This document shows, one piece after another, positions 1 through 43,715 of a stretch of DNA of 64,000 nt. Under the pieces are notes generated by a model. It was not told the DNA's origin, made no database searches, and saw only the letters and a program-made list of their open reading frames with translations. The stretch comes from a virus. The DNA lies in the IMG/VR virus record IMGVR_UViG_3300020183_000007, positions 1 to 64,000 of that record, one strand, 5' to 3'. Both the position numbers and the translations under genes were made by a program. The first letter of the stretch is position 1; the number at the start of each line of letters is the position of its first letter.

Positions 1-279
1 AACTCTTCCATACTTTTCTTTCTTATCAATAATAGTTTCAATTTTGACTTTATGATTTGCTGCGGTTAGCCATTGGTCAGTAAATTCTTTTGCCGCTAAT
101 CCCATTTTCTTTTCTTCAACATTAGAAGTTCTACTTTCAGGTGTATTAACTCCATATAATCGAACTCTACCCTTCTTCAACACATCAAAGCCAAGATCAA
201 TAATGATATCAAAAGTATCACCATCAACAACCTTTTTTACTTCAGCATTATATATCCACGGGTTTAATTTATCTGACAT
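1..279 (-). CDS. SNase-like (thermonuclease) nuclease, truncated by the window edge
   Basis: Not in the ORF track; translated by hand from ATG at 279: MSDKLNPWIYNAEVKKVVDGDTFDIIIDLGF...RVRLYGVNTPESR...EKYGRV. Contains the SNase motifs DGDT, RL-x-G-x-x-TPE and KYGR. Confidence 0.88.
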   Translation of the reverse strand, partial: MSDKLNPWIYNAEVKKVVDGDTFDIIIDLGFDVLKKGRVRLYGVNTPESRTSNVEEKKMGLAAKEFTDQWLTAANHKVKIETIIDKKEKYGRV

Positions 280-1173
280 TTATATCTCCTTAATTTGATT
301 AACTATCCAATATATTACAGGGGAAACAGCCCCATTGCCACACATTTTATATCTAACATTATCAGAATTATATTTACCATCAGCTCTATATAGAGTATGA
401 TTATCTGGCCAACCCATCAATCTTTCGCATTCTAAAGGTGTAAATTCTCTAACGCATAGACTGTTATTGTCTTCTACTACAATTAAATTTTCTCCTCTAC
501 TTGAGGGCTTTCCTCCTTTGCCACCGCTTCTAAGGCAGCTAGCAATCTTTTCGGAAAAATACTCTTGTTTGCTAACATTCTTCTGAGAATTCCCCGAGCC
601 GCTTTTGCTGACAGGTAATATTTTTTCGGGACATCTTTGTGCTGTTGCATGATCGAAGACAGATATAAGGTATATTCTTTTTCTTCGCTGGGGCACTCCA
701 AAGTATTGTGCATCCAGGACTGCCCATTCCGAGAAATGCGCCCCTGCTTCATCCATTTCGTAGAGGACTTGCCCAAAGTCGGCACCTGCGTTGGATGATA
801 AGGCGCCCGTAACATTTTCCCAGATTGAAATTTTTGGATATTCTCCATTTGTCTTTTCTCTCATCTCTTTAATTATTCTAATCGCCTCATAAAATAAAAC
901 AGATTGCTCTGCATTTAATCCAATTTTATTACCGGCACTTGATAAATCTTGACAAGGTGAACCAAAAACTATCAAATCTACTGCGGGGAGATCATATCCG
1001 TTAACATCTTTTATATCACGATACTTTGGAACATTGGGCCAGTGATATGATAACACTTGTTGACAATTTTGATCAATTTCAACCTGAAAAGTGCACTGAA
1101 GACCTGCAAAGTCTAAGCCTATATCTATCCCACCAGCCCCTGCAAACAAAGAGCCATAGCTTTTTATGGGCAA
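280..1173 (-). CDS. dcm: DNA (cytosine-5) methyltransferase
   Basis: Motif I SLFAGAGG, catalytic GSPCQDLS, motif VI ENV, motif VIII QRRKRIY, motif X RYKMCGNGAV. Confidence 0.95.
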   Translation of the reverse strand: MPIKSYGSLFAGAGGIDIGLDFAGLQCTFQVEIDQNCQQVLSYHWPNVPKYRDIKDVNGYDLPAVDLIVFGSPCQDLSSAGNKIGLNAEQSVLFYEAIRIIKEMREKTNGEYPKISIWENVTGALSSNAGADFGQVLYEMDEAGAHFSEWAVLDAQYFGVPQRRKRIYLISVFDHATAQRCPEKILPVSKSGSGNSQKNVSKQEYFSEKIASCLRSGGKGGKPSSRGENLIVVEDNNSLCVREFTPLECERLMGWPDNHTLYRADGKYNSDNVRYKMCGNGAVSPVIYWIVNQIKEI

Positions 1174-27661: not shown

Positions 27662-28831
27662 TTAATAATTAGTTCCACCCATTATAACAGAACTCACACT
27701 TATCGCACCTGCTACTGGATATTTTTTAACTGTATCTAATGAGAAATCTGCAATTGGGAGAACTGAACCATCGGCTAACATTGCCGTTATATAGCATCCG
27801 CGAATATAATCTGATGATAACTTAATCTGCCTTTCAATTTCAGAAACTAATACTACATCTCCTACGGTTAATGAATTTAGATACCTCTTTACAAAAAGTG
27901 AAGCCTGATTTCTAATTCCACTAGCAAGATTTTCACTTAAGCCCATTGGTAAACTAACGGTTATCTCTACATTTATGCTAACTCGTTCGGCCATCCTAAC
28001 ATTAAATCTCACTCCAATTGGTTTGACAGCGCTAACTGCTATCATTACTCTTTGAGGTAAATTTGCCATATCAGTAGCTGTTTCTGGCACAATTATGACG
28101 TCACATGATCCAACTCCATATGTACCCTCCCTAATTCTAACGTCCCTAACTCCTCTAACCGCTAAGGCTGCAAATCTAATTGACTCAGCTGTACCTGGAG
28201 CTTTTGCTTTTACAGAAGCTATGATTCTTCTTCTAAAATTAGTATCTGATTCTGCGCTCGTGTTAGAGTGAACCTCTTTTGGATTGGAGCAAAATAATAT
28301 TACTCCAGCCGGAGAAAAAGCATTGTGTTTAGTTAAAGTGCTAACTGGCGCAACATAAGCGTTGTCTGTGAAATTTGGATCAACTCTTCCATAGGCCCTG
28401 GTGGATCCTTTGCCAATAATTACATCTCCAGCTAATTTATATGTGTATTGCTTTGTGATAAAATTAGATACATCATTATAAACTAATGTTCCAGACGGTA
28501 TTGTCACATCTGTACTATGCGGTTTATCAATAAAAAATTGAATATTAAAAGATTCACGATCCTGGCTTGAATAGTCGCTAACATTTCTTCTAGTTATACC
28601 ATACAAATCGCCTATAAGATCTAAATTTCTCCCGGATGCGGTCATAAGATCTCCCTGCATAAGGTTGAATCTCAGTGCCTCATACAAGTCCGACACTTCA
28701 CTGGTGAAGGCTTCAGCAAAAGCTCTAGCTATAGAGCCTGGATAAACAGCCGATATGCCTGCATTTTTTTGTAAACCATTTAAAACGCTGACTAATATGT
28801 CAGCTTTATTTTTTATTCCGTACATTGGCAT
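27662..28831 (-). CDS. Baseplate J-like wedge protein
   Basis: ASGRNLDLIGDLYGITRR, VTIPSGTLV, AESDTNFRRRI, GTAESIRFAALAVRGVRDV. Confidence 0.9.
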   Translation of the reverse strand: MPMYGIKNKADILVSVLNGLQKNAGISAVYPGSIARAFAEAFTSEVSDLYEALRFNLMQGDLMTASGRNLDLIGDLYGITRRNVSDYSSQDRESFNIQFFIDKPHSTDVTIPSGTLVYNDVSNFITKQYTYKLAGDVIIGKGSTRAYGRVDPNFTDNAYVAPVSTLTKHNAFSPAGVILFCSNPKEVHSNTSAESDTNFRRRIIASVKAKAPGTAESIRFAALAVRGVRDVRIREGTYGVGSCDVIIVPETATDMANLPQRVMIAVSAVKPIGVRFNVRMAERVSINVEITVSLPMGLSENLASGIRNQASLFVKRYLNSLTVGDVVLVSEIERQIKLSSDYIRGCYITAMLADGSVLPIADFSLDTVKKYPVAGAISVSSVIMGGTNY

Positions 28832-28832
28832 C

Positions 28833-29213
28833 TCATGCTCCTAAAGTTTGGCTAACGGAAAGAATAATGGGCTCATTGATATCTGATATGATGTGAATAT
28901 CAAATCTGATTATATCCCTACTTGTTGGGACTGCCTTAATTTGAATACCCCTACCCTTAAAAAGACCTTCTTTTTGAATACCAGCCATTATTAAGGCTTT
29001 GCCAAATTCAGCTGTTTCCTTGGTTTGTGGCATTCCATAGAGTCTTGAAAGATCCACCCCTAACTGTGGATAAATATAGAAATCTCCAGGTTCAGTCATA
29101 ATTCTTAAGTAAATCTGCTGGACATCCTCATGCATAGAGGATGGAGCTAGGGCAATATCCCTATTACCATCAAGCATCAGGTCTCCATTTAATGTCAAAT
29201 ACAAATCACTCAT
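28833..29213 (-). CDS. Baseplate wedge / sheath initiator (gp25-like)
   Basis: DLYLTLNGDLML, QQIYLRIMTEPGDF..YPQLGVDL; lies immediately upstream of baseplate J. Confidence 0.8.
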   Translation of the reverse strand: MSDLYLTLNGDLMLDGNRDIALAPSSMHEDVQQIYLRIMTEPGDFYIYPQLGVDLSRLYGMPQTKETAEFGKALIMAGIQKEGLFKGRGIQIKAVPTSRDIIRFDIHIISDINEPIILSVSQTLGA

Positions 29214-29850
29214 TTGTTTCCTTTAATGCAAGATTATGAGCTTGCTCAAAACTACTTCCATCTTTTATTAACTGAATCATCAACAATATATGCTCTTTGG
29301 AGTGATCCGTCTGATATATCTCAAGTAGAGCTATTTGCTCATCGGTTAGCCCAGCTAAATCATATTCCGATTCATATGATTGTTGAGTTTGCTCTTGTTT
29401 TTTGGCAAAACCAAACTCACCTACTATAGTAATAGGAATTTGTGTTTCTTGATCTGCATATTCTTGAGCATTATTTAAATAATAGGCAACACCGTTAGTT
29501 GCTGAATGAATATTTTTATGATTAATCTTTACTAAAGTTGGCTCTATATAAGAGGAGGCGCAATAGTTAAAGTTGTAGCTATTCCATCTTAGCCCGTCTT
29601 CTTTTGTAAATAATCTTACAGAATCTCCAAATAAAGAAATAGATTTGGACTTTGCACTTATAACGATACCAACACCAGGCGCAGCAAATATTTCTATATC
29701 GCCACGATCATTTAATCTTATAAAACTAGATAGATCTGGATGAGTTAGCCCAACTTCTCTTTCGGAAAACTCTTTTCTTTTTCTAATCTCAACCCCTACG
29801 GGAACCGTAGGTTGCTGATAGTTATCTCTTTGTATCGATTCTTTAGTCAT
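29206..29850 (-). CDS. Probable spike-associated protein
   Basis: Beta-strand run SFIRLNDRGDIEIFA..GVGIVIS; positioned between spike and wedge. Confidence 0.55.
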   Translation of the reverse strand: MTKESIQRDNYQQPTVPVGVEIRKRKEFSEREVGLTHPDLSSFIRLNDRGDIEIFAAPGVGIVISAKSKSISLFGDSVRLFTKEDGLRWNSYNFNYCASSYIEPTLVKINHKNIHSATNGVAYYLNNAQEYADQETQIPITIVGEFGFAKKQEQTQQSYESEYDLAGLTDEQIALLEIYQTDHSKEHILLMIQLIKDGSSFEQAHNLALKETNE

Positions 29851-30218
29851 GAGCTAACCATAAAATTAGGAATTCCAGTATTAACAGTATTGTAATATCT
29901 ATAATTCCCCATATTACCTGCATCATTATAAAAGTTTATAATATATGGCTTTGTTTCATTGCTGTCGCGAAAACCAATTAAACATCTACTGCCTGGAGTG
30001 GGAGCCACAGCCTGAACGCCATTGGTTACTGGACAAACAACATTTTTTATAATATTACCTATATTTTGAGAATACTGATCTTCCAATACAACTACAGCCG
30101 TGTTTTGATGTTTGTCATAAGATGCTATAATACCAGGCCTATTCCTGGCTTTTTGCATTTCAGTGGCATCTATTTGATCTTGTATTTTTTTATCGAATTT
30201 AGGGTAATTAACTGGCAT
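29847..30218 (-). CDS. Probable baseplate spike OB-fold protein (gpV/gp45-like)
   Basis: GIIASYDKHQNTAVV...NVVCPVTNGVQAVAPTPGSRCLIGF. Confidence 0.65.
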   Translation of the reverse strand: MPVNYPKFDKKIQDQIDATEMQKARNRPGIIASYDKHQNTAVVVLEDQYSQNIGNIIKNVVCPVTNGVQAVAPTPGSRCLIGFRDSNETKPYIINFYNDAGNMGNYRYYNTVNTGIPNFMVSS

Positions 30219-30226
30219 TTTTGCTC

Positions 30227-32569
30227 CTAACTATCTCCATTTGCGTATTGTCTTGGGAATACTTCTCCGCTAATCCATCTTTCTATATATTTAGCTGAGT
30301 AGTTTGCTACTACTGGCAAAAATACAGATGGATCATTGGCGTATACATTTCTTATCCACCTTTTTAAATGTTCTGCTGTTTTACCCGTTTTATCAGTATA
30401 TACGTCTACTGCGTCCTGAAACTTGACTCCGCTATTCATCCAACCGTAAGCTTTGTATCCATCTCCCCAAACCTGAAATTGATATCCATCAAGTTTAGGT
30501 TCTCCAAAAGTTGGAAGTCTTCCTGTACGAGCAGTATAGGCTAACCAAGCCTGATTTCTAGGTATCCACAATCTTCTGTCCACCAATGGTCTCATCTCTT
30601 CTACTACCTTATTACTGGAATTACCGTTGTAAAATAAAGATAGATGATATTTATCATTTATAATTTTATTATACGTATCTTGAGTTGGCCTAGTTTCGCC
30701 TGGATAAACTGAGTCCCAATTAGCTGAAGCTATGAGCCATCCCTGCATCTGCGTCTTTCCATTTGTATCTGTTAATTCATAGGTTTTAGTTCCATGCGCC
30801 AAACCAGAACTTCTCGTATACCTTGGGGTACCACCAGAATATCCAAATCCACCAGCACCCATATTAATCTGTAAAAAGCCTAAAGAAATAAAATCTGTAT
30901 CACCAATATAAAATCCAGTAGGCCTACAATTACTTTCTCTTACAGCTACTGCTGCCAAACATGCTGCAAGTTCGGGTGTGCACCATGTTTGGGTCAAAAC
31001 ATCATAAACTCCATCTAAACCTAAACTAAAATCCCATTGCCCATAATAGTTTTGATCTAACGAACTAGCTGTAGTGCCGGGGTATAATCCTCTTTCAATT
31101 TGACGCTCCAAACTATCTACGGCACCAGGAAATCCAGATGGACGCGAGGTAACACTGCCACCGGAAACATTTGTCCCAGAAACTGTCATAGCTCCACCAG
31201 GACCAACATATTTACCAGCTCTCATTCCGCTAAAGCTTAAGTGTATGTGATCTCTATGACCTGAATCAGCGTGAAAGTTTAAATATTGTAAATATGGTCT
31301 ATTAAGTTTTATCGCAGCAGTCACTGGTTCTAAATCATCAATTATTCCCATATCAGTCTTAAGTCTATCGCTAATGACAATTAGATCTGGGATAAGGTAC
31401 TGGGGAACCTCGGATAAAGCTTCTAGTAATATATCTAAAGCAGAACCATATATAGTCACATGATTTGGTGAACTATGAGTTGTTTCTACGTCAAACGCTT
31501 CTTCATTAATTCTTCCAACTTTTCTTATATCTATAGCTCTACCGAAAGTATGATCTCCGGGAATAAATTTATCTGGCTTAATGTATTTTTCCTGATCTGG
31601 ATCTCTTCCCGCACCAAGACCACCAGATATATAGTAGTTTTTTTCGTGCAGGAGTATTAATAATTCTATCAAAGATGCTGATAAAAATGCGTTTGCAACA
31701 CCCAAAGTAGGATTTTGAACTATTAGGTCGTCGCTCAAAACTCTTTGGGTATTATCTACTTTAGCATCGGGGAAGTAAGTAAAAGATCCATTATAGACTT
31801 CTCTAGGGTCTGCTGCCCATTCATTCGGAATATCAAATCTAAATCCACCAATACTAGAGTAATCACCTATTTGTCCTTCATATTTTGTTCTAAGCAGATT
31901 CAACCTTTCTCTATACCAGCTTTTTTCTTCTTCTGTCATTTCCGCTATTAAAGCAACATCCCTTCTTCCCGCACTTTGCATCTCACTAATACCCGGGGAA
32001 CTTGATCCACCGGATCCTCTATTATTTTCTAACGGATTTCTGCTTTCAGAGGAAGTAATCATTGTATTTCTTATAATTTGCAAAGAATTTTCAACAAAAG
32101 TATTGCCAATATTTTTTCCGGCCATACTCTTAGATAGTATTTTATTCCATGCCGCAGCTCCGGTTAGAGTGGCATTATTAGAGCCAGTAGGATCCCCCTC
32201 GGGGCCAACACTAAAATCTGTTGCTTCAGGGTTAGCTATTGTAATGGTCGCATTTTCGGGAGTGGTAGCGGATGCAGCTGCAGCTCCGCCAGTAATCAAA
32301 CCATTTAAAGATGCAGATACACTTGCATTCATGGCTGCTATAGGATATTTTTTACTTCTATTTAAAACATCTCCAGCCATAACTCCAGTTACATCAAAAG
32401 AACTTAATGTTCTTCCTGTGGCAGGAGGCGCTAAAGAAGCGCTAGTGTTTAAAACTGGTGATTTTCCACCGGGGTAAAAATCCCCATGTATAGTTTTAGC
32501 AAAAGATGCGCTATCAGAAAGAGATTCATTATTAATATTAAATGACACAATAAACTCCCTATTGCCCAA
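30227..32569 (-). CDS. Tail-associated lysin: M15-like Zn peptidase plus lysozyme-like (SLT) domain
   Basis: DHTFGRAIDI...HRDHIHLSF (M15/LAS-type H-x6-D...H-x-H); AVAVRESNC...LGFLQINM (SLT ES and GxxQ motifs). Confidence 0.75.
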   Translation of the reverse strand: MGNREFIVSFNINNESLSDSASFAKTIHGDFYPGGKSPVLNTSASLAPPATGRTLSSFDVTGVMAGDVLNRSKKYPIAAMNASVSASLNGLITGGAAAASATTPENATITIANPEATDFSVGPEGDPTGSNNATLTGAAAWNKILSKSMAGKNIGNTFVENSLQIIRNTMITSSESRNPLENNRGSGGSSSPGISEMQSAGRRDVALIAEMTEEEKSWYRERLNLLRTKYEGQIGDYSSIGGFRFDIPNEWAADPREVYNGSFTYFPDAKVDNTQRVLSDDLIVQNPTLGVANAFLSASLIELLILLHEKNYYISGGLGAGRDPDQEKYIKPDKFIPGDHTFGRAIDIRKVGRINEEAFDVETTHSSPNHVTIYGSALDILLEALSEVPQYLIPDLIVISDRLKTDMGIIDDLEPVTAAIKLNRPYLQYLNFHADSGHRDHIHLSFSGMRAGKYVGPGGAMTVSGTNVSGGSVTSRPSGFPGAVDSLERQIERGLYPGTTASSLDQNYYGQWDFSLGLDGVYDVLTQTWCTPELAACLAAVAVRESNCRPTGFYIGDTDFISLGFLQINMGAGGFGYSGGTPRYTRSSGLAHGTKTYELTDTNGKTQMQGWLIASANWDSVYPGETRPTQDTYNKIINDKYHLSLFYNGNSSNKVVEEMRPLVDRRLWIPRNQAWLAYTARTGRLPTFGEPKLDGYQFQVWGDGYKAYGWMNSGVKFQDAVDVYTDKTGKTAEHLKRWIRNVYANDPSVFLPVVANYSAKYIERWISGEVFPRQYANGDS

Positions 32570-35500
32570 CTCTTGCGGGCATTATTGCTGATTCTTCGGC
32601 ACTGATGACAGAATTCCCCTCAATTTGAAGCTGCTTAGTATATACTGTAGCCAAGTTATTTGTTACCAATTCCCAATTTAGGGTAACAGGATGGCCATTT
32701 TCATAGTATTCATCCCAGAATATAGTAGGCCATTCTCTAGTTTTATTATAGGTAGATTCTAGTACTTTATACTGCACTAAATCGTTATACAATTTAATTG
32801 TTTCACTATTGGATAATCCATATTTAGTATTTGTATCGAGTGTTATGGATAGTGGCGAAGTGTAAACTAAGCCTAATGCTGAAAGCGCATTTAATATTGA
32901 GTCTTTCTTAACAAAAAGTGGTGAATCTTGATATATAGAGTTAAAGAATAATTGTTTTATTTTTTGCTCTGCGCCGGCGCCAATTTGATTATCTATAAAA
33001 CATTTTTCAACAAAATCTTTTGCTGCCTGGACTATAGACTCTGGCTGATAATACCATACTGTACCAAGGATTCTATTTGACTCTGTAACATCTTTAGTAT
33101 AGTTTGCAACAGTATTTTGCTCTGCCCCAGCCTCGAAATCAGATTCAGAAATAACAGAACTCGACGCTGCGTTGTTAATTCTTATTCTTAAAACTACTAA
33201 TCTGTTTTCTAATTTAGATTGTACGAATATCTTAGCTTTACCACCAGGAGTATTGATTGCAGTCATTTTCGTTGATGGCGTTGAGTCATTACTATAGCTA
33301 ACTCCTAAATCGCCATCATTTGATGTAACAGTAAATGTATTAATTTCGCCAGAGTCTATTCCATCAAATCTGACAGTAAATTTTGCCCCAGAAATAACAT
33401 CCTGTACATCAAATGTGTCACCATCTTTAAATTTTATAACTTTAGCAATAACGCTAAATAGTGAAGGTTGGAGATTAGTTTTATCTGGACCTAGCCCACT
33501 TAATTGTAGCACTCTTGCATGAACTAGAGCATTCTCGTAATCTATGTATCTTATTAGATCTGTTGTCTGCCTTTCTTGCCAACCTAAACTCTTCAAAAGA
33601 TCGTCGCTTCTAATAAAAATATTTCCTTCTGGTGTTCTAACTTTTGTCCTTGCACCGAGCAGGCCGGGGAGCAATACTTTAGAGTGATGCCTGCCAACAA
33701 CCATACCCTGATTATAAGATAGTCCAGCATCCATCGGCTGACCATTCTTGCTAAGATATTGAACATAACATCCGTGTTGGTCAAGAACATTGTCTCTAAT
33801 CCATTTCCAACCCTTCCATGCCAATTGACCAACTATTGGCACAGACAAACCCATAGCAAAGCCTGCTACTCCGGTAGCGCCAGCGCCAGCTGCAGCCGCT
33901 GCGATGCCCACTCCGCCAGTTAAGGCAGTAGTCATTCCCTGAAAAACAGATCTGCTAGCAGAAGAACCATATTGCTTAATCACAGCTTCTGCTTTTTGGG
34001 GAAGAGTTGTAGCTGTTTGATTTGCCATAATATCCTTAATTAAAGCAGTAGATCCATGAGTGTATTGTAATCCACCAATCATCTGGGGGCTTAAGGCGTC
34101 GGATAAAGCATCTACTGATACCATTCCGCCTAAATTAATGCCGCTGTTGGATGCCATTATATTATCCATATAGAAACGTGTATCATTTCTTAGGTTTTGC
34201 ACAGTGAACCATGAGTTAATCCATGAGCTCAAAAACCATCTGGCAGGATCGTTAACGGTCACCAAAGCATTTGGTGTAATCGATGTAATATAGCCCATTT
34301 CTGGAGTAAAGTGATGTACTATTTGTTCAACTTCAAAAATGCCGTACATTCTTTCATAAACATCCGACAAGTAAACCAGGTCATGCGGACGTATATCAGC
34401 ATTCCCGATTATAATTAATTCCCCACCATATATATCTTTAATTGATTCTCTCAGGTGCGCTAACGCTATTCTTCTAGCAGATAGTTCGTCAGGTGTGCCC
34501 TGAATATTTTTTGCTATACCCCTGACTGTTTCCAGGGGATGCATTAGTGGATGCAGCACACCGAGAAATCCAGATCCAACGAAATTATCGTAATACAAAC
34601 CTGTTTCAACAGTTTTTTCAGTTTGACGCTCTGCTGGCGCGCCTTTGTCTAGGGCTACTGTAATTGGATACTTGCCATCTGAGACAGCTGTAACAACAGT
34701 AGAAACTCCATTTAGGTTTTCTTGAATCTGATTAGATATAATATGAGAAAATGAACTTAAATAATGCAATCTTTGGAATGATTGCCTAACTTCCACAACT
34801 GGCTCACCATACTCACGAGTAAACGGATTATCTACAGCCCTCAATAGGCTACCCTCTCTTCCAAGCGAATAATAAATAGAATCATTTAGAACTTTATTTA
34901 ATATATGAGCTTGCCTACTAAAATTACCAACTTCGGTGATAGCATATCCCATTTGCATCATGGCCAATTTAAACATACCTAAAAGACCAGAAAGACCGTC
35001 GCCTATTGCACTCATAATTGGCCCTATGTTTCTATCATAGAAATTACCAACGCTTTCTGATATTCCACTAATAAAAGTAGAAGAACCAGTTCCTTCCGAT
35101 TTTGTGGAAACTAAAAGCTTCAGAAATTTATTTTTATCCTTAGCGTATTCACCATAAGGATTTATAAAAGCTTCAAAAATTTTATCAACAGGTTTGAATG
35201 ACCATTGCCCCTCAGAACCGCCTCCACCACTTGTTATAATTCCCCTTTTACGGTTGGGCTTTAATACTAACCATGCTCTACCATAAGCTGTACTCCAAAG
35301 ATTTTGTCTAAATATTCCAACCATTAAAAGAAATAATTGTTTTGGAGTTTTAATTTTTTCACTTAGAGCAATAGCCTCTTCAGGATTTTTTTTATTTTCT
35401 AAAGCGTACTCTAATATCGAGTTTGTAACTCCAGACTCAAAAAAGTTTTCTTTGATTCCATTAAGAGCGTCAGCAATAGTAGCATTAAAAAATTGTATTA

Positions 35501-38500
35501 TCCCTGTATCAGATTCTTTTTCTGCTGCTATTAAGTCTATATAGTTTTTTCTTATAAACTCTACTGCGTTTCTTCTTTGAGTAGCGTTTGTTGACGGAAC
35601 ACCTTGACCACCCATCTGTGGATTATTGGGTATATTAAAATAATCTGCACCTAACAAAATAGCTAATTCATCTACTGCGGTATTTTCAGTGTTAGATAAA
35701 CCTGCGATTGGAATGTTTGAATCCTCAAAATTACTAAATGAGTTTTCGTTTGAGGATCCTAATATTCTAGCAAATTCTTCTGGAAATGCGTCCGTTGAAT
35801 CTGGGTCCATTCCATAAATTCTTGCAAAAATAGCTTTAACGCTATCATATGTATGATAACCAAATCTGAACTGATCCCATATATCATTTGCTTGATTCAG
35901 ATTTCTTCCATTACCAGCTATAACTGATACATTCGGGTCAAAATTTTCATCATAATAAGATCGAGCTTCAACTGAAACAGAGTCCAAAGGGTCATATACA
36001 CTTAAGAATGCAGCTCTGCCCTTACTTGTCTTTACATCTCCGGTTGTACTCAGCTCTTCATCTAAAACGTCATATAAATAACTTCTAGAAAGTTGTTCAT
36101 TTCCTACTAGATCGGAATCTTCACTTGATCCTAAACCACCAGACTCTGCTGAGGAATTAAAGTTTGTAGCATCTAATAGTGCATTAAAGTAACCTATAAA
36201 TGGTTTATCTCTTCCGTCTGGAACTGCTAAAGCATTGCCGCCAAAATCAAATCTGCTAGAAGATATTTCCGCATTTATAGGAATCCACTCCGAGAATATA
36301 TTTGGAGGATCTACCATGTCCTCATCATAAACCTTAAATCTAGAGCCAGCTCCACCTTGAAGTTCATTTATTAAATCCTGAGAAGTTGTGCGTCTTGCTG
36401 TCAGTTCTGATAACTGACCATCTTCTGTCATTGTGTAATTTCCAAAACCAAGGATCATGCTGTCATCCGGAGATCTGGCTCCTCTTTCAAGGAATCTTTT
36501 TATCGGAGCTGCTGCTGAAGATATTACACCTACAGGAACATCGTCTGGCACAAATGCAAACATACATTCCACTGGCTGTGGATTTATACTTAATCCACTT
36601 TCATTTTCATAATTTAACTCATCTTCATTACCAAAAATAGATACATTTAATCTATCGGTAATTCTATTTCCTATATATATAGGAGCGCTAATATATTGCG
36701 AAACGTTTAAAGCATAACCAAGCGCAGTGCCTGCAGCGCTGCCTACAGCGCCAGCTGCACTTGCCATTGTATTTATCCATGATGGCAATTGGTTTAATAT
36801 ATCGGATTCCTCTGAGTTAGCGGTTAATTTAAAACTTAAATTTTTTGATATGAAGTTACCCAAATACCATGCAGCGTCTGGAGAAACTACAGCTGCCGCC
36901 GTATCATCATCATCTCCCCATAGGAAATATGCTGGAGCGCAAACAACAGCCCTATTAGTTCTGGGACTATAAACTAAGACTTTTCTCTTTTTATAATCTT
37001 CTGCTGTTCCATATAAATCCGTAAATCCATACTTTTCTTTGAACTTTTCCAATGTTTCATCATAGACAGTTATGTTATTAAAGCCCGAAGGAGCTTGCGT
37101 AGAAGAGAATCCAGGATTATATGGCCATTTCATAGCAATGTAAAATTGTTCTGCCTCTGCTGCTGTTTGCTGAGAGGCAGGGAGGTCACCGGGAGATCCC
37201 CATTCTTCATAAGATATCTGATTTGATATCTCATACTCAAACGAATAATCATCAGCATTTCTCTTTGCCTCAGAAGAGCTAACTGAGTATTGTGTAATTG
37301 CAGCTGGGTCAACAGATATGCTTAATCTATTAGCTAAAACAGAGGGCAGAGGCATTCTTACATACTTTGTATTTGCTCCACCAATAAAAGACAAACCATC
37401 TACATCAATAATATTATCAATAAAAGTTGAGAACCCCAAAGGACGATCTAACTCTAATATTCCAGAAGATGGCACTAGAGTTAGTTCATTATTTAAAATG
37501 AACTTGCTTTCATACTGAAGCAGGGTAAACATGTTGGCCATAAAAGTTGCGCCACCAAAAGATCTTCTATCTTCTGCCATTGCCTCATTGACAAACCCTT
37601 GAAATTCTTCGGCGTCCATTGGAACTTCGCCTTCATTATCTAGAAACTTTCTTCCAGATTTGCCAATATCCTTAAAATGACTGGCTGCGTTCTGAAAAAC
37701 TCCGCCGTCTCTAATACTATAAGATGTAGAGTCTAATATAATAGTTTCATTGATTGTGTAAAACGGGTACCTAAATCTTGGCGGAAGATTATCCAACTGA
37801 GCATGGGCTTTTGTCATTGGAGCAATAGTTGTAGTCGGATCTCCAACAGGAAGGTGGAAACCAACTCTTGTTAAGCCAACTACTGTTGGTAGTTTTGCTA
37901 CTACCACTTTAGTTCCGTCGTCTTGTGTTTCAGAAAAGCTTGAAGCTAATGGTGAGTTAAAGTTAATTAATTTTTCTTTCAAAAATGCCGTAGGCTTATA
38001 AATGCCCTGTGAATTAACTTGATCACTAGCTAAGCTTGCCATTGTATCTGACAGTTCATTAGATCTTTTAAATGCTTCATAATCAGCAAGTGTGTTACTG
38101 GATCTATTTATATTACTCATAATATTTTGAATATCTTCATCTGCCGAACGATATTTTGGATAGCCAGGTAATTCTAGTTCAGAGCCTCTTTGCGTACTAG
38201 GAAAACCAGTAGTTACAGGTACTACGCCCGAAGTGTAAAGCCAGTGAGGCTTACCATAAAATATTGTAGATCTATCTTCAAAAGGTCTAATGGCTACAAT
38301 ATAATTGGGTAACAATCTAGCGCAAACCTGGAATAAATCCCATACAGTTCTCATATATGTTTGAGCCCTGAAGGAGACTTCGTCAAAACCTGGTAGGTCA
38401 TCATCATCGTTTGGTGAAATAATACCCATTGTTCGGAAAAGATTGGTGCCACCTCTTCCTCTTAATATTCCAAATAATCCACCACCAGCTATTCCAGAAC

Positions 38501-41500
38501 CTATAGCAAAATTTACTCCAGGTATTAGACCTACAGCTCCAGCCAATCCACCCATAAGTATATTTTTAGTTGCGTTTGCCCTACCCTCACTAGATACTAG
38601 TTGATTTCCGGCAGTCATTGTTGAAATTGCTGTTTTGGCTGACACGGACTCATTTTGAGCTTCTACTATAAGACGATTCCAAGATCTGTCTCCGGCTCTT
38701 TCCAAATACGCTTGTCCTTTTAGTTTTTTACTATCTTCCTCCACTAAAGACGAAGCTGTCAACCATCCATCATCTATGTCTCCACCAAGGAACTGAGCAA
38801 AGCCTGTTCCATTTCCTGGATAAATATTTCTTTTGAAAATTTCTAAATCAACCTCTGCACAGAAGTTAGACATTAACTGCCCCATGCTAGTCATTATTCT
38901 TCCATCTCCAAAGAATGTGCTAACAGGGTTTCTTGTAAAAACATTAGTTGCCAACTTGAATGATGCCGCATTGGCAGCTCCGCCAACATCTCCTTGACCA
39001 AGATTAGAATAAACGCTTGCTACAACATTTCTTATTCCATCAGCTCTTGCCCTCTCTGATTCGCTTAATGGTTCGTATAGTGTTGAGCCAAAATGTCTAA
39101 TACCAAATCTATTTTCAGAAAAGACTGTTCCATTTGTAGCTCTAGCAAAAGCTTCCCTAAATCTTGATGCGCCCATTGAAAGCAATCTAACCATTAGGTC
39201 TCTAGGTTCAGACAAATACATGCCAGTATCTACGCCACCATCTATTTTACCTGTGTCGCCTTTTTTATTTGTAGAGTTAACTATTGCACTAAGCTCAATT
39301 GCATCAGACTGTGCTGTTACTGTAACAATTTCACCTTGCTCCACATTTGTTATCACACCATTGAAAACTGTTTGCAAAGAGTTTGGATTAGCACCATATC
39401 CAACCCTAAGATGAACGCGAACTCCAGGCTTTAATCTAATATTATTAATATCTACAACATAATCATTTCTCATTCCTGAGACAATATTTTTAGCTATATT
39501 CAAAGTTCTATCCAAAATAGATTCAATACCTTGAGTAAAGTCTATTGGAGCATCATTTGGTTGGTTATCTCTAGAATTAAAAATTTCAGTAGAAGGACGT
39601 GTAGTCAATTTTGAATACATATTTGATACTCTAAATATTAAAGTATCACCCAAGAGATCCTCTGAGGAAACAACGGAAAAATCTACTATAGACTGCAACC
39701 CATAAAAGTTATCGAATAATTTAACACCAGCAAAAAAACCACCTTCGTCAATTAACCATAACATGTAGGTGGGAAATGCCCTGATCATTCTTCCAGATAT
39801 ATCTCTATACTGTACATCGTTCATCATCTTTTGAATATGGCTACCAAAGGATCCATCATAAGCTTTTTGATACTTATTTAATGACTGAACACCTTCTACG
39901 CCGGTAAGGGCATTTTTGCAACCTCTATCTGGCGTTTGTGTATCCTCAACCTGATTCTCTACTAGTCTCTTGTCTCCATGGTCATCTATCAAAACATTGG
40001 CTCCATCAACTGTTAAATAAAATCTTCCATTGTCTTTATTAATATAGCCAAAATGAGTCCCTAATGCTGATTGCATCATTGCCGGAATGTCTGATCCGGA
40101 TCCAGCTTCTTGCGGATTTGTTGCTGGAATCAAGTATATAACTTTATGAAAATCAACTTCATCTGGATTAAAGCTGACTTCTGTTTCAGTTGCTAAATGA
40201 GAATTTGTCAAAACCTGTTTGATTAAATTTAGCGTTTCTGCACTACTATAATTTACATTACCAACGGAATAACCGGCTCCAGAAATTTCTTCAAATACTG
40301 GATTATCTTCAGTTGATTGTGCAGAAATAAAAACATAATCGGTTAATAAGGCTTGCTTTTCTGAAGTTTGAAACTCAGAAGTTTCTGCTTGTACCACTTC
40401 TTGGAAAAGACTAATAAAGTTATGAACGCTTATGCCGCTACTGTTCACATAGTCTATGATTTCGTCAATTAATATTTTATTATTATTTGCTCTTAAAAGC
40501 TGCGGCAATGGCTCATTGGCAATATCCTTATAAGCGTATCTTCTAAGAAAATCTGTAATTCTATTTTTAACTTGATTTTTTCTTATTTCTATACCACGCG
40601 CATCTCCCAGCTTAGCCCAATTATCACTATAATCAAATTTAAAATCTTTTGTTATATCTGGTTGATAAGTAAAGTTATTAATGACATCTCTGTCAAACAT
40701 TTCAAAACTTCTAAAATAGAAGTCTGGATCCAAATTGCCAACTATTTCATTTTCTTTATCACGAACTTCCAGCGGCATATCGGGATATGCATTAAATGCT
40801 CCCCACAACTGCTTAATTCTTAAAAATGGATTTCTTTTTGACCCAAAGTGGTCAATAAAATCTTTTTGCTGCTTTGATGAAAGCTTTTCTCTTTTTTGCT
40901 GAAATATGTCAAAGTCAACAAAACTTAATTGAACATTGTAAACATGTGGATAATTTGGTATTGTATCGACTTTGAAGTTTAATGGAATAACATATTTGAT
41001 TCCACATAGTGCGCTAATAATATTTTTAATTCCAAGGAAACCAATAACTCCCGTAGAGTGTTCAAGCCTTGCTAATGAATTGATATGATCAAAAATTGCT
41101 CTAATTTTATAAAGCTCTCTTTCACCAAAAACAGTCATTGATATATTGACATATGAATCTTTTCCACCTATATACTGATATGTTGGTTCCTCCTGCATTT
41201 GCACTTGCAACTTCGAAAGGTTGTTTCCAAGACTTACGCTTACACCATTAACTATAGCTTTTTTAGGGTCTAAATCAACTCTGTTCATTGGGACTTCCCA
41301 TTCCTGGAAATGGTAATCTCCCTCCCTTAAACGCTTTGCCTCCATAAGATTTTGGATATAGCCATCAGAAAAAAAGCGATCATACAGTGATAATAAGAAT
41401 GCATCAGTTACTTGTTGACGAATTTTTTTTTCGTCAGGCACGGCTGTTTCGGTGCCTAAAACTTTTCTTTTTTCAATCTCTTCGACAATCAAAGTTTCAA

Positions 41501-43715
41501 TAATATTACCAGAAGAATAAACTGAATCCCAAATACTTTTTTTGATAAAGTTTAAACTAACACTATTATTTTTATTATTGAAAACTGGATCATTCAATAT
41601 ATATGATCCTTCTGTTGGATATAGGGTAAAGTAGTCTACATCAAATGGCATTTGGTCTGGAGTTAGGTAATTCAACAACCATTCTTTTTCTTGTGTCGTC
41701 AACTTTAATATGTTGCTTGATATAAATGACTGTACCTTGTATTTATAGATTCCAGCCCTGTAGTCACTTTGATTAATACCAGCAGTAATTATATCTACAG
41801 ATTGCCTAACAGCTGTCTTAATAGAAGGGGGGAATGTTGGCTCTAGAGAAAGAGACTTGATTTGATCTAAATCACGAATTGCTGGTGTATTTGGAGAAAT
41901 TTCAATTCCGAATTTTGCCAGCAAACCATTCCACAGTCCAAAACTTTGTTGATTAAGAATTTTTTCCTGCTCACTTCTGAAAGAAGAAGTATCAGGTAAG
42001 AACATTTTTGTTTGAGTTTCAGCTGGAGTATAAAAAGTTAAGTTACTACCGTCTCTCCACTGAGCAACTATATTGGTATATAAAACATCATTTTCATACG
42101 TGTTAAGCAGTTCTACTGTGTCATCCGTTAAAGAAGAATCTACTAGCGCAGATTCATCGATTAAAATAGGTCCATGTGGATTTTTCTGATATATATATGA
42201 GTCACTACGAATTATTCCAGTATTATCTTCTGTCTCTTGGACATTTTTATTATCGGACGTCTTTAGTAAGAAGGATTCGTTTGCGTATTTATGCATTGCA
42301 CCCGCTGCTTTACCCATGTACTGCCTGTATTTACCCCAATGAATTGCTTGATTAAAGTCTTTGAGCATTGGCAAAAATGGTTTGTGATTATAAGCGAGCA
42401 GCTCTAAATCAACCATTAAAGAAAATGGATAATTAGGAACTGTAGAAACAGACATAGAAGATAATGCCACAGCTGAAATTCCATGGACAGAATTTATATA
42501 ATCATTTTTTATTGGAAGTATTGGAGAGTATTTAAATGCTGCTACTAATCCACGCAAAGAAGAAAGAAACTTATCTATTTTTTCTTCCGAATCTCCAGTA
42601 TTCTTAAAATCTATTTTAAAATTTTCCTTAAGATCTATTGCCGAAGCATCGCTTATATGCATGCCCCATATTTCTTCATAGTTTGGAAAGAATAATCTTA
42701 AAGAGATTGAAGTTTCTTTATAGCCAGCATTATATTTGGGAGTATTTCTTTGTCTGATTGCTCCGCCAGTAAGTGATCCAGTTTTAAATGCAGAATTAAC
42801 CGTGATAGAAATAGGCGGTACATAAAAATTAGCTGCGCCTAAACGCAAATGAAAAATATCAGGTTTTTTGGGAGGTATATGAGCTCTATATGGAAAGTCT
42901 TCTATTGCCTTACGAATTCTTTCGGAAGTGTTACCTCCAATTCTAAAAGCCATAGTAAATATTGGCTCACCATTTGGAGCAAGACCAAAAGCTTTTTCCA
43001 ATTCATCAATAGCATCCTCTTCCCTATTGAGGGTATCCTCTTTTCCGCCACCCTTGCCTGCATTTGAGTAGTCGCCTGTTACAGCCAACGCATCAAAAAC
43101 AAACGTCATTAAACCCGGCAGGTAGTGATTTATAATAGAGAAAGATATAGGATCCGCTTGAAGATTGTAAACTACTTGGCTTAATAAAGTAAGCCATTCG
43201 GTATCAACCGCTGGATCTATGTGATAATCTAAAGACTTTTGTGTAATATACACATTTTGTAGTCTTTTCTTGCCCAATTCACTTATTTCATAGGCGAATG
43301 ATGCTAGATATAGTAGGCCGGTAGATTCTAGCCTTTTATACAAATTTACCAGAAGAGTATTGTCGTCAATGATTGAAGACAATGTGCCCCCAAGCGTAAA
43401 AACTCTAGTAGTAGCTTCTACCCTTTTCTGATAGTTATCTTTCGCTTCTTCCAGACCAGATGAATAATCTGCAAGGGTTGCATAATGATCTATATCAAGT
43501 ATGGGAAGAATTTCAGGCCTAGTTAAAGAAAAAAACCTTTCAAAAGCTTCTTCTGAGTTTTTGTACCGAGACTTAGGTAAATAATCATCGGTTAGATTAA
43601 GCGGACCAACCGTCATCATATTCACAAAAGCTTTTTGACTGTAATTATATGACAATGGGTCTGCGGAGTTTAAATTCTGTTCTTCTTGATTTTCCGATTG
43701 TTCGATATTAGACAT
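32559..43715 (-). CDS. Giant fused baseplate hub (3718 aa) with a C-terminal SNase-like nuclease
   Basis: Hub motifs RLKPGVRVHLRVGYG, FNGVITNVEQGE and IIIGNADIRPHDLVYL...FEVEQIVHHFTPEMGYITSI; SNase motifs near the C-terminus. Confidence 0.75.
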   Translation of the reverse strand: MSNIEQSENQEEQNLNSADPLSYNYSQKAFVNMMTVGPLNLTDDYLPKSRYKNSEEAFERFFSLTRPEILPILDIDHYATLADYSSGLEEAKDNYQKRVEATTRVFTLGGTLSSIIDDNTLLVNLYKRLESTGLLYLASFAYEISELGKKRLQNVYITQKSLDYHIDPAVDTEWLTLLSQVVYNLQADPISFSIINHYLPGLMTFVFDALAVTGDYSNAGKGGGKEDTLNREEDAIDELEKAFGLAPNGEPIFTMAFRIGGNTSERIRKAIEDFPYRAHIPPKKPDIFHLRLGAANFYVPPISITVNSAFKTGSLTGGAIRQRNTPKYNAGYKETSISLRLFFPNYEEIWGMHISDASAIDLKENFKIDFKNTGDSEEKIDKFLSSLRGLVAAFKYSPILPIKNDYINSVHGISAVALSSMSVSTVPNYPFSLMVDLELLAYNHKPFLPMLKDFNQAIHWGKYRQYMGKAAGAMHKYANESFLLKTSDNKNVQETEDNTGIIRSDSYIYQKNPHGPILIDESALVDSSLTDDTVELLNTYENDVLYTNIVAQWRDGSNLTFYTPAETQTKMFLPDTSSFRSEQEKILNQQSFGLWNGLLAKFGIEISPNTPAIRDLDQIKSLSLEPTFPPSIKTAVRQSVDIITAGINQSDYRAGIYKYKVQSFISSNILKLTTQEKEWLLNYLTPDQMPFDVDYFTLYPTEGSYILNDPVFNNKNNSVSLNFIKKSIWDSVYSSGNIIETLIVEEIEKRKVLGTETAVPDEKKIRQQVTDAFLLSLYDRFFSDGYIQNLMEAKRLREGDYHFQEWEVPMNRVDLDPKKAIVNGVSVSLGNNLSKLQVQMQEEPTYQYIGGKDSYVNISMTVFGERELYKIRAIFDHINSLARLEHSTGVIGFLGIKNIISALCGIKYVIPLNFKVDTIPNYPHVYNVQLSFVDFDIFQQKREKLSSKQQKDFIDHFGSKRNPFLRIKQLWGAFNAYPDMPLEVRDKENEIVGNLDPDFYFRSFEMFDRDVINNFTYQPDITKDFKFDYSDNWAKLGDARGIEIRKNQVKNRITDFLRRYAYKDIANEPLPQLLRANNNKILIDEIIDYVNSSGISVHNFISLFQEVVQAETSEFQTSEKQALLTDYVFISAQSTEDNPVFEEISGAGYSVGNVNYSSAETLNLIKQVLTNSHLATETEVSFNPDEVDFHKVIYLIPATNPQEAGSGSDIPAMMQSALGTHFGYINKDNGRFYLTVDGANVLIDDHGDKRLVENQVEDTQTPDRGCKNALTGVEGVQSLNKYQKAYDGSFGSHIQKMMNDVQYRDISGRMIRAFPTYMLWLIDEGGFFAGVKLFDNFYGLQSIVDFSVVSSEDLLGDTLIFRVSNMYSKLTTRPSTEIFNSRDNQPNDAPIDFTQGIESILDRTLNIAKNIVSGMRNDYVVDINNIRLKPGVRVHLRVGYGANPNSLQTVFNGVITNVEQGEIVTVTAQSDAIELSAIVNSTNKKGDTGKIDGGVDTGMYLSEPRDLMVRLLSMGASRFREAFARATNGTVFSENRFGIRHFGSTLYEPLSESERARADGIRNVVASVYSNLGQGDVGGAANAASFKLATNVFTRNPVSTFFGDGRIMTSMGQLMSNFCAEVDLEIFKRNIYPGNGTGFAQFLGGDIDDGWLTASSLVEEDSKKLKGQAYLERAGDRSWNRLIVEAQNESVSAKTAISTMTAGNQLVSSEGRANATKNILMGGLAGAVGLIPGVNFAIGSGIAGGGLFGILRGRGGTNLFRTMGIISPNDDDDLPGFDEVSFRAQTYMRTVWDLFQVCARLLPNYIVAIRPFEDRSTIFYGKPHWLYTSGVVPVTTGFPSTQRGSELELPGYPKYRSADEDIQNIMSNINRSSNTLADYEAFKRSNELSDTMASLASDQVNSQGIYKPTAFLKEKLINFNSPLASSFSETQDDGTKVVVAKLPTVVGLTRVGFHLPVGDPTTTIAPMTKAHAQLDNLPPRFRYPFYTINETIILDSTSYSIRDGGVFQNAASHFKDIGKSGRKFLDNEGEVPMDAEEFQGFVNEAMAEDRRSFGGATFMANMFTLLQYESKFILNNELTLVPSSGILELDRPLGFSTFIDNIIDVDGLSFIGGANTKYVRMPLPSVLANRLSISVDPAAITQYSVSSSEAKRNADDYSFEYEISNQISYEEWGSPGDLPASQQTAAEAEQFYIAMKWPYNPGFSSTQAPSGFNNITVYDETLEKFKEKYGFTDLYGTAEDYKKRKVLVYSPRTNRAVVCAPAYFLWGDDDDTAAAVVSPDAAWYLGNFISKNLSFKLTANSEESDILNQLPSWINTMASAAGAVGSAAGTALGYALNVSQYISAPIYIGNRITDRLNVSIFGNEDELNYENESGLSINPQPVECMFAFVPDDVPVGVISSAAAPIKRFLERGARSPDDSMILGFGNYTMTEDGQLSELTARRTTSQDLINELQGGAGSRFKVYDEDMVDPPNIFSEWIPINAEISSSRFDFGGNALAVPDGRDKPFIGYFNALLDATNFNSSAESGGLGSSEDSDLVGNEQLSRSYLYDVLDEELSTTGDVKTSKGRAAFLSVYDPLDSVSVEARSYYDENFDPNVSVIAGNGRNLNQANDIWDQFRFGYHTYDSVKAIFARIYGMDPDSTDAFPEEFARILGSSNENSFSNFEDSNIPIAGLSNTENTAVDELAILLGADYFNIPNNPQMGGQGVPSTNATQRRNAVEFIRKNYIDLIAAEKESDTGIIQFFNATIADALNGIKENFFESGVTNSILEYALENKKNPEEAIALSEKIKTPKQLFLLMVGIFRQNLWSTAYGRAWLVLKPNRKRGIITSGGGGSEGQWSFKPVDKIFEAFINPYGEYAKDKNKFLKLLVSTKSEGTGSSTFISGISESVGNFYDRNIGPIMSAIGDGLSGLLGMFKLAMMQMGYAITEVGNFSRQAHILNKVLNDSIYYSLGREGSLLRAVDNPFTREYGEPVVEVRQSFQRLHYLSSFSHIISNQIQENLNGVSTVVTAVSDGKYPITVALDKGAPAERQTEKTVETGLYYDNFVGSGFLGVLHPLMHPLETVRGIAKNIQGTPDELSARRIALAHLRESIKDIYGGELIIIGNADIRPHDLVYLSDVYERMYGIFEVEQIVHHFTPEMGYITSITPNALVTVNDPARWFLSSWINSWFTVQNLRNDTRFYMDNIMASNSGINLGGMVSVDALSDALSPQMIGGLQYTHGSTALIKDIMANQTATTLPQKAEAVIKQYGSSASRSVFQGMTTALTGGVGIAAAAAGAGATGVAGFAMGLSVPIVGQLAWKGWKWIRDNVLDQHGCYVQYLSKNGQPMDAGLSYNQGMVVGRHHSKVLLPGLLGARTKVRTPEGNIFIRSDDLLKSLGWQERQTTDLIRYIDYENALVHARVLQLSGLGPDKTNLQPSLFSVIAKVIKFKDGDTFDVQDVISGAKFTVRFDGIDSGEINTFTVTSNDGDLGVSYSNDSTPSTKMTAINTPGGKAKIFVQSKLENRLVVLRIRINNAASSSVISESDFEAGAEQNTVANYTKDVTESNRILGTVWYYQPESIVQAAKDFVEKCFIDNQIGAGAEQKIKQLFFNSIYQDSPLFVKKDSILNALSALGLVYTSPLSITLDTNTKYGLSNSETIKLYNDLVQYKVLESTYNKTREWPTIFWDEYYENGHPVTLNWELVTNNLATVYTKQLQIEGNSVISAEESAIMPARVGQ

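Follow-up and report, generated by a model that had tools for sequence, protein, structure and literature searches.

We analyzed a stretch of viral DNA of 64,000 nucleotides (here called the window), which corresponds to the first 64 kb of the 179.6-kb IMG/VR virus record IMGVR_UViG_3300020183_000007. The record, of an uncultured jumbo phage, is estimated to be about 85% complete, and the guanine-plus-cytosine (GC) content of the DNA is about 36%. Nearly all long open reading frames (ORFs) of the window are on the minus strand, with giants of 3,718, 2,231, 1,696, and 1,691 amino acids (aa). The largest of these encodes P0001, a protein of the baseplate hub type, and its C-terminal ~300 residues (aa 3418 to 3696) form a divergent staphylococcal-nuclease (SNase) domain, i.e., a thermonuclease domain with an oligonucleotide/oligosaccharide-binding (OB) fold. 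The parts of this protein that are relevant here, in the order in which they are translated, are as follows (residues of the nuclease are numbered as in SNase).

32559..43715, minus strand: hyper-expanded baseplate-hub-like virion protein (P0001), a single open frame of 3,718 aa plus stop and the largest ORF of the window
39081..39842 (aa 1292-1545), minus strand: best-conserved hub-core stretch, matching positions 911-1149 of phrog_20474
33933..34793 (aa 2975-3261), minus strand: distal hub-core stretch, matching phrog_20474 positions 1278-1656 (E value, 1e-25) and phrog_8809 (E value, 1e-10) and containing the hub motif IVHHFTPEMGYITSI (aa 3132-3146; window positions 34278-34322)
33816..33932 (aa 3262-3300), minus strand: Gly/Ala-rich hydrophobic (glycine-zipper-like) segment with a Kyte-Doolittle peak of 1.54, followed by WKGWKW
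33465..33815 (aa 3301-3417), minus strand: conserved linker module, …LDQHGCYVQYLSKNGQPMDAGL… followed by a long helix
33048..33464 (aa 3418-3556), minus strand: N-terminal part of the SNase-fold domain, holding six catalytic equivalents
32736..33041 (aa 3559-3660), minus strand: helical insert of ~100 aa, lying within the hairpin that connects the R87 strand to the 'DG' turn
32628..32735 (aa 3661-3696), minus strand: C-terminal part of the SNase-fold domain, WP..WDEYYENG.PVTLNWELVTNNLATVY, which aligns with 'DG..LNGELVKLGLANVY' of the SNase P0195

An earlier note, made from the letters of the sequence, had proposed that this protein is a baseplate hub, and this identification was supported on three grounds. 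(i) P0001 matches phrog_20474, the family to which gp147 of Bacillus phage 0305phi8-36 belongs, with an E value of 8e-121 in five collinear stretches that lie between profile positions 134 and 1656 of 1954. (ii) A tblastn search with aa 2373 to 3372 retrieved proteins that belong to jumbo myoviruses, namely, 0305phi8-36 ORF147 (E value, 1e-11; annotated 'baseplate hub protein' or 'endolysin'), vB_BceM_WH1 gp094 ('virion structural protein'), vB_AbaM_ME3 ME3_37 ('baseplate hub protein'), and a protein of Moorella phage MTATph1. The matches to 0305phi8-36 ORF147 and to the WH1 and ME3 proteins arise from the distal hub-core stretch, which is 64 to 92% identical among 16 relatives. (iii) The order of the neighboring genes, described below, is that of 0305phi8-36. 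Using hidden Markov model (HMM) comparisons, Hardies, Thomas, and Serwer (2007; PMC2147016) assigned gp147 to the hub family of T4 gp27 and P2 gpD, and they termed it a 'hyperplastic' hub with exchangeable enzyme domains at its N and C terminus. The matches support the view that P0001 is a homologue of this published hub, and the step from gp147 to gp27 and gpD rests on that article. Going by the same article, the best-conserved stretch (aa 1292 to 1545) probably corresponds to 'domain 1' of gp27.

From metagenomes we compiled 112 homologues of P0001, which are representatives of 90%-identity clusters and range from 2,098 to 4,026 aa in length. Homologues of 3,300 to 4,000 aa share the domain order of P0001, and a gene-call artefact or the fusion of two genes was therefore rejected as the origin of the giant frame. 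The idea that the protein is the hub of a phage of a Gram-positive host is unsupported; one homologue carries the label Flavobacterium sp. in NCBI, the GC content is about 36%, and any host assignment is tentative.

Four SNase motifs are found in the same frame of this minus-strand ORF as the hub motif, at the following positions.

33405-33443 (aa 3425-3437), minus strand: KVIKFKDGDTFDV
33345-33374 (aa 3448-3457), minus strand: VRFDGIDSGE
33051-33077 (aa 3547-3555), minus strand: NRILGTVWY
32640-32681 (aa 3679-3692), minus strand: LNWELVTNNLATVY

The composite signature D[GA]DT…R..G[IVLM][DN]..E has two occurrences in a six-frame translation of the window and none in 200 shuffles, and a chance match of short motifs was rejected on these grounds. 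The two sites are the hub domain and a separate SNase gene at positions 1 to 279. To place the catalytic residues, hhalign was used for the first four motif positions and a multiple alignment with the SNase P0195 for R87, which gave the following equivalents.

aa 3431, minus strand: D3431, equivalent to D19
33417-33419, minus strand: D3433, equivalent to D21
aa 3434, minus strand: T3434, equivalent to T22
33369-33371, minus strand: R3449, equivalent to R35
33354-33356, minus strand: D3454, equivalent to D40
33345-33347, minus strand: E3457, equivalent to E43
33072-33074, minus strand: R3548, equivalent to R87

P0001 thus keeps the equivalents of D19, D21, R35, D40, E43, and R87. The earlier note had listed the five motifs and called the SNase residues catalytically intact; the motifs lie where it had put them, and by motif criteria the residues are all present. 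It had also estimated an insert of roughly 120 aa, and we measured ~117 aa for the whole insert, counted from the R87 strand to the 'DG...LNWELV' element. This insert at the R87 hairpin is reduced to ~40 aa in more distant giant hub proteins and is absent from the stand-alone SNase, and all hub-borne versions have one. Comparison of the helical insert by VIA-align revealed no specific structural relative, only generic helical bundles with Z scores of 6.5 or less. A smaller second insert of ~30 to 45 aa follows E43 and is modeled with low confidence. In the relative L023:3001-4248 (32% identity), the loop after the E43 position of the SNase domain contains an extra segment of ~85 aa, which indicates that this loop tolerates large insertions.

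Evidence for the fold was obtained from an AlphaFold2 (AF2) model, which was based on an alignment of 16 relatives with identities of 39 to 91% (alignment A2) that also served to build a profile. The mean predicted local distance difference test score (pLDDT) was 63.8, with values of ~80 for the barrel strands and 80 to 93 for the inserted helices. An exhaustive VIA-align comparison of the model with 48,161 representative chains placed SNase folds at all ranks from 1 to 13 (Z scores of 7.2 to 10.5), so that the OB-fold SNase model foreseen by the earlier note was indeed obtained. In this comparison, SND1 had a Z score of 10.5 (107 aligned residues; root mean square deviation [rmsd], 3.0), the SNase structure 1sta a Z score of 9.7 (106 aligned residues; rmsd, 3.4; 26% identity), and the SN-like domains of eTudor Z scores of 7.2 to 10.4. 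The top Foldseek matches in the Protein Data Bank (PDB) were all SNase or SND1 (best E value, 2.5e-3), and in a library of viral structures the best match was a 'Baseplate hub protein' of an uncultured phage (E value, 1.6e-21; 32% identity), followed by TNase-like proteins.

The ancestry of the domain was traced with the A2 profile, which in a HMMER search of 1.84 billion representative proteins found 88 sequences, most of which were C termini of giant proteins or short pieces covering parts of the profile. Among them was P0195 (259 aa; E value, 7e-4), a bona fide SNase that scores 73.7 bits with PF00565. The alignment of A2 with P0195 by hhalign had a probability of 95.4%, and DGDT and R..GID.PE were in register. 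The distant giants (2,400 to 3,250 aa), which are phrog_20474 proteins with E values of about 1e-112 to 1e-121, end in a more canonical SNase (IDGDT…VRLQGVDAPE or IRFLGIDTPE), and their C termini match phrog_452 ('endonuclease') and phrog_20876 ('nuclease'). The Pfam gathering threshold of PF00565, 21 bits, is exceeded by two distant hub relatives, P0192 (22.1 bits) and P0178 (22.2 bits), and one of the 16 close relatives matches this family with an E value of 0.0057. In a joint alignment, the order of elements was identical in P0195, the distant giants, and P0001. The domain has the SNase fold and descends from SNase-family sequences, and we consider it highly probable that it is a true SNase-derived domain on a protein of the hub family.

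The conservation of the active site was assessed by a residue census in an L-INS-i alignment of the 112 homologues. D19 was conserved in 111 of 111 sequences, D21 in 109 of 111, R35 in 110 of 112, and E43 and R87 in 96 of 112 each. At the D40 position, Asn was found in 74, Asp in 19, and Gln in 3 homologues, so that Asp is a minority state there. The combinations observed, with residues in the order D19, D21, T22, R35, D40, E43, and R87, were as follows.

DDTRNER: 73 homologues
DDTRDER (P0001 included): 19 homologues
DDTRQER: 3 homologues
DDERISK, DDERVSK, or DGEKIPK: 16 homologues
---RNER (first three positions gapped): 1 homologue

The full set, with Asp, Asn, or Gln at the D40 position, is thus present in 95 of 112 homologues (~85%). 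The closest relatives of P0001 (85 to 91% identity) carry Asn at this position where P0001 carries Asp, which indicates that it toggles freely. In SNase, Ca2+ is bound by D21, D40, and the carbonyl of T41, and substitutions of D40 are probably the mildest of the active-site mutations. In the alignment of 16 sequences, six of the seven key positions fall among the 15% of columns that are invariant, for which a binomial estimate gives a chance of ~8e-5. The roles of R35 and R87 (phosphate), of E43 (general base), and of Ca2+ are described for micrococcal nuclease (PMC8436206).

The nuclease occupies a defined slot of the hub. Relative to the distal core, a hydrophobic segment is found in the matching place in nine close relatives, in some distant giants, and in 0305phi8-36 gp147, where it lies ahead of the peptidases. 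In gp147, homology to the distal hub core extends to about aa 1415, the hydrophobic segments span aa 1419 to 1445 and 1507 to 1528, and NlpC/P60 (aa 1633 to 1741) and M23 (aa 1796 to 1880) domains follow. As the order of distal core, hydrophobic segment, and cargo is common to both proteins, the nuclease sits in the slot that a cell-wall hydrolase occupies in relatives from phages of Gram-positive hosts. In the same genomes, sequence divergence is about twofold faster in the SNase piece than in the hub core (39 to 91% versus 64 to 92% identity), as expected of a peripheral, host-facing cargo. The mean column conservation in the 112 homologues was 0.76 for the C-terminal block, 0.72 for the linker, 0.50 for the N-terminal part of the SNase domain, and 0.39 for the insert. 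The C-terminal part, the most conserved block of the domain, has many columns that are invariant in the 112 sequences, and its model confidence is low. The linker module recurs in distant giants and has no Pfam or PHROG match (aa 3301 to 3417). It contains …RDNVLDQHGCYVQYLSKNGQPMDAGLSYNQG…HHS… and might act in docking, processing, or gating; its conservation exceeds that of most of the nuclease domain, the C-terminal block excepted. A second Gly/Ala-rich hydrophobic segment, NILMGGLAGAVGLIPGVNFAIGSGIAGGGLFGIL, is located in the middle of the protein (aa 1719-1751; 38463-38561, minus strand; Kyte-Doolittle peak, 1.67) and has a counterpart in most close homologues.

The record also carries a nuclease of this family outside the hub.

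1..279, minus strand: stand-alone gene of the SNase family, truncated after its first 93 aa because the record begins there

Its product matches PF00565 above the cut-off (28.3 bits; E value, 5.4e-7) and contains VVDGDTFDI…VRLYGVNTPE…KYGR; the residue at its D40 position is Asn (GVNTPE), as in the majority of hub copies. Its hhalign probability with A2 is 79.5%, and it may be the paralogous source or a sibling of the hub domain. Directly upstream of this gene is an ORF of 297 aa (280-1173, minus strand) with motifs resembling those of C5 DNA methyltransferases (FGSPCQDLS). Hardies et al. (PMC2147016) suggested that the enzyme domains of hubs derive from stand-alone phage genes by intragenomic transfer, an idea that agrees with the separate SNase gene at positions 1 to 279.

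The same article reported an SNase-related domain at the N terminus of the BtI1 hub homologue and stated that it was 'not obvious why' it is there. Among cultured phages, the ME3 hub ME3_37 (AND75198.1) has an SNase domain (PF00565, 53.2 bits; aa 1126 to 1241) beside an M23 peptidase. A tblastn search of 50,697 cultured phage records with the C-terminal domain of P0001 gave no match, and for the hub homologues of cultured phages the alignment stops at the distal hub core, short of the SNase part. Literature searches for virion- or tail-borne SNase or thermonuclease turned up the 2007 article alone; in the Goslar structure preprint, nucleases appear only as host defenses. Nucleases on this hub family have therefore been known since 2007, and what is new here is the C-terminal placement only: the present variant is C-terminal, divergent, split by an insert, and located behind a glycine-zipper segment.

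Baseplate genes lie downstream of the hub ORF.

27662..32569, minus strand: baseplate genes downstream of the hub, ORFs of 780, 123, 214, 126, and 389 aa
28833-29213, minus strand: gp25/W-like ORF of 126 aa
27662-28831, minus strand: gp6/J-like wedge ORF of 389 aa, matching phrog_6 'baseplate wedge subunit' (E value, 1e-36)

Weaker matches in this group were to phrog_120 and phrog_975. The gp25/W-like and gp6/J-like ORFs are 3 to 5 genes downstream of the hub ORF, and the order of hub, ORFs of 780, 123, and 214 aa, gp25/W-like, and gp6/J-like is the order of 0305phi8-36 ORF147 to ORF151. In 0305phi8-36, gpV-like and gpJ-like genes come after ORF147, and both neighborhoods proceed from the hub through a spike region to a gpJ-like gene. 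The 780-aa ORF directly downstream of the hub (30227-32569, minus strand) has no Pfam match at an E value of ≤0.01 and no PHROG match at ≤0.001. Two giant ORFs upstream of the hub, 44181-49256 (1,691 aa) and 49259-55954 (2,231 aa), both on the minus strand, have no PHROG match at an E value of ≤0.001, and by position one of the two should be the tape measure.

A comparison with known systems places P0001 as follows. (i) 0305phi8-36 gp147 and the prophage-like homologues BtI1 and BwK1 belong to the same protein family as P0001, as judged from the collinear phrog_20474 and tblastn matches. In both gp147 and P0001, a conserved hub core is combined with exchangeable enzymes, and the C-terminal cargo is preceded by a hydrophobic segment. 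However, gp147 is half as long (1,903 versus 3,718 aa), and its C-terminal cargo consists of NlpC/P60 and M23 peptidases, with no nuclease there. The SNase of BtI1 is N-terminal (PMC2147016), whereas that of P0001 is C-terminal, does not reach the Pfam threshold, and is interrupted by the ~100-aa helical insert. (ii) The hub of the cultured Acinetobacter jumbo phage vB_AbaM_ME3 is likewise a hub homologue with an SNase domain, but this domain is internal rather than C-terminal behind a hydrophobic segment; it is compact (~116 aa by its Pfam match), and its similarity to the domain of P0001 is remote (hhalign, 57.6% over 38 columns). (iii) The SNase family (PF00565; 1sta, 1stn, and the SN domains of SND1) shares its fold with the P0001 domain (Z scores of 9.7 to 10.5), and DGDT, R-x4-D-x2-E, the R87 strand, and the 'DG..N.ELV..GLA.VY' helix occur in the same order and spacing. 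The P0001 domain differs from this family in its inserts of ~30 to 45 and ~117 aa, its fusion to a structural protein of 3,400 aa, and its score below that of Pfam; in addition, its relatives mostly have Asn at D40, and K84 and Y85 are not kept. (iv) The evolved VgrG proteins of the type VI secretion system (T6SS), to which the earlier note had likened P0001, resemble it in outline, as both combine the hub of a contractile machine with a C-terminal enzyme. Enzyme cargo on a hub is a fair analogy in this respect, but we detected neither a gp5-like OB nor a beta-helix spike part in the P0001 chain, and family searches gave no VgrG, Phage_GPD, or gp5 match. The similarity of P0001 to the evolved VgrG proteins is therefore one of plan, and it does not belong to that group.

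Our preferred reading, to which we assign a probability of roughly 0.6, is that P0001 is a hub carrying a divergent SNase with its catalytic set kept, which would act as a nuclease outside the cytoplasm and have a structural role besides. A hub trimer at the center of the baseplate would place three nuclease copies at or in the tail tip, and contraction of the sheath would carry them into the envelope together with the tip. The hydrophobic segment (aa 3262 to 3300) probably inserts into the membrane, and the domain would then cut nucleic acid in a Ca2+-dependent manner where Ca2+ is plentiful. Its target could be extracellular DNA (eDNA) in the matrix or capsule outside the cell, or DNA in the periplasm; the cytoplasm would be a less likely site. 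SNase-type enzymes are typically extracellular and need high Ca2+ concentrations, and this dependence favors action outside the cytoplasm. An attack on host DNA in the cytoplasm seems less likely and would also endanger the entering phage genome. Taken one by one, the substrates considered for the hub nuclease are each rather doubtful candidates. That a subclade has retained the domain after the loss of three catalytic residues suggests that it also has a role in structure or assembly. In the phage of P0001, the odds that the domain is an active nuclease appear slightly better than even.

A number of observations weigh against this reading. (i) P0001 has no PF00565 match at an E value of ≤1, either as the whole protein, as ten overlapping pieces of 420 aa, or as its last 346 aa, and the HMM search that the earlier note had recommended thus failed for this sequence. 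Searches of the PDB by sequence, run in phmmer and hmmsearch with the nuclease domain, the profile of this domain, the profile of the hub, and the full-length protein as queries, were empty or retrieved rows at chance level, the latter being all that the hub profile yielded. As for the hub, Phage_GPD (PF05954) has no match at an E value of ≤10 across the 179.6-kb record, and the AF2 model of the distal core (aa 2906 to 3305; alignment A3) was unusable, with a pLDDT of 33.9. (ii) The mean confidence of the nuclease model is moderate, and the geometry of the active site is beyond inspection because the WDEYY…LNWELV block is poorly modeled. (iii) A clade of 16 of the 112 homologues has Ile or Val at D40, Ser or Pro at E43, Lys at R87, and Glu at T22 and keeps a full-length domain. 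Its members are drawn from P0036-P0053, P0075, and P0078 and include the sole organism-labeled homologue, that of Flavobacterium sp. It looks like a naturally inactivated version, and the loss of D40, E43, and R87 in these sequences would mean that at least one lineage can do without catalysis. (iv) The nucleotide-contact residues K84 and Y85 are not recognizable in the clade of P0001 ('TESNR'), and the best-conserved blocks are the C-terminal WP..WDEYY.DG.P.TLNWELV..NLA.VY and the upstream linker rather than the active site, which argues against a fully intact enzyme. (v) The phage's own genome would be at risk from a nonspecific nuclease located where the DNA exits, unless the two are separated or the enzyme is masked.

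Two other explanations were weighed against these data. The domain may be a noncatalytic module, in which the OB fold serves binding or assembly and the residues are kept by ancestry or for the binding of Ca2+ or phosphate without hydrolysis; such a module might grip the end of the DNA, or the tape measure, within the hub, or its ligand might be a phosphorylated component of the envelope. The full-length domains of the 16 homologues without D40, E43, and R87 speak for it, as do the peak of conservation in the WP..WDEYY.DG.P.TLNWELV block and the linker, the missing substrate contacts K84 and Y85, and the noncatalytic SN-like domains of Tudor-SN and eTudor among the nearest structures. However, D19, D21, and R35 are near-invariant, and E43 and R87 persist in 96 of 112 homologues at identities down to ~30%. 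The distant hub giants are even more canonical (GIDTPE/GVDAPE), which argues for long-term selection on the active site, and we regard a purely noncatalytic module as unlikely.

We judge similarly improbable an injected effector, for which the Gly/Ala segment would form or thread a membrane channel through which the SNase enters the cytoplasm and degrades the host chromosome, a plasmid, or RNA early in infection, as the phage counterpart of an evolved-VgrG nuclease effector. Its appeal lies in the C-terminal position behind a conserved hydrophobic segment, in the retention of the catalytic set in ~85% of the family, and in the cargo of gp147, which in the equivalent slot acts on the host envelope (PMC2147016); the C5-methyltransferase-like ORF adjoining the stand-alone SNase might mark phage DNA, a weak point in its favor. 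Set against this are the high Ca2+ requirement and typically extracellular location of SNase-type enzymes and their lack of sequence specificity, which would expose the incoming phage DNA. Moreover, a translocation signal or cleavage site is only hypothetical, and a catalytically dead clade exists.

The conservation of the active site in more than 95 divergent uncultured phages, the location in the hydrolase slot, and the stand-alone paralogue in the genome together suggest that nuclease activity is under selection.

To our knowledge, phage tail-tip enzymes are almost always cell-wall or capsule hydrolases. It is unlikely that an active nuclease delivered by the tail, threaded through the membrane by the glycine zipper, strikes host or competitor nucleic acid at infection; if true, this would be the first case of a phage tail with a counterpart to the evolved-VgrG nuclease effectors of the T6SS, and the exchangeable slot, with peptidases in relatives from phages of Gram-positive hosts and a nuclease here, would make the hubs of jumbo phages modular effector carriers. 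The recurrence of a nuclease on the central hub of a whole jumbo-phage lineage was first remarked on in 2007, and the location of the hub SNase varies by phage, being N-terminal, internal, or C-terminal behind a membrane-like segment. P0001 adds an instance to this series. Matrix eDNA, periplasmic or incoming foreign DNA, and host nucleic acid are the candidate substrates, and the identity of the substrate would add a new step to how large contractile-tail phages start infection.

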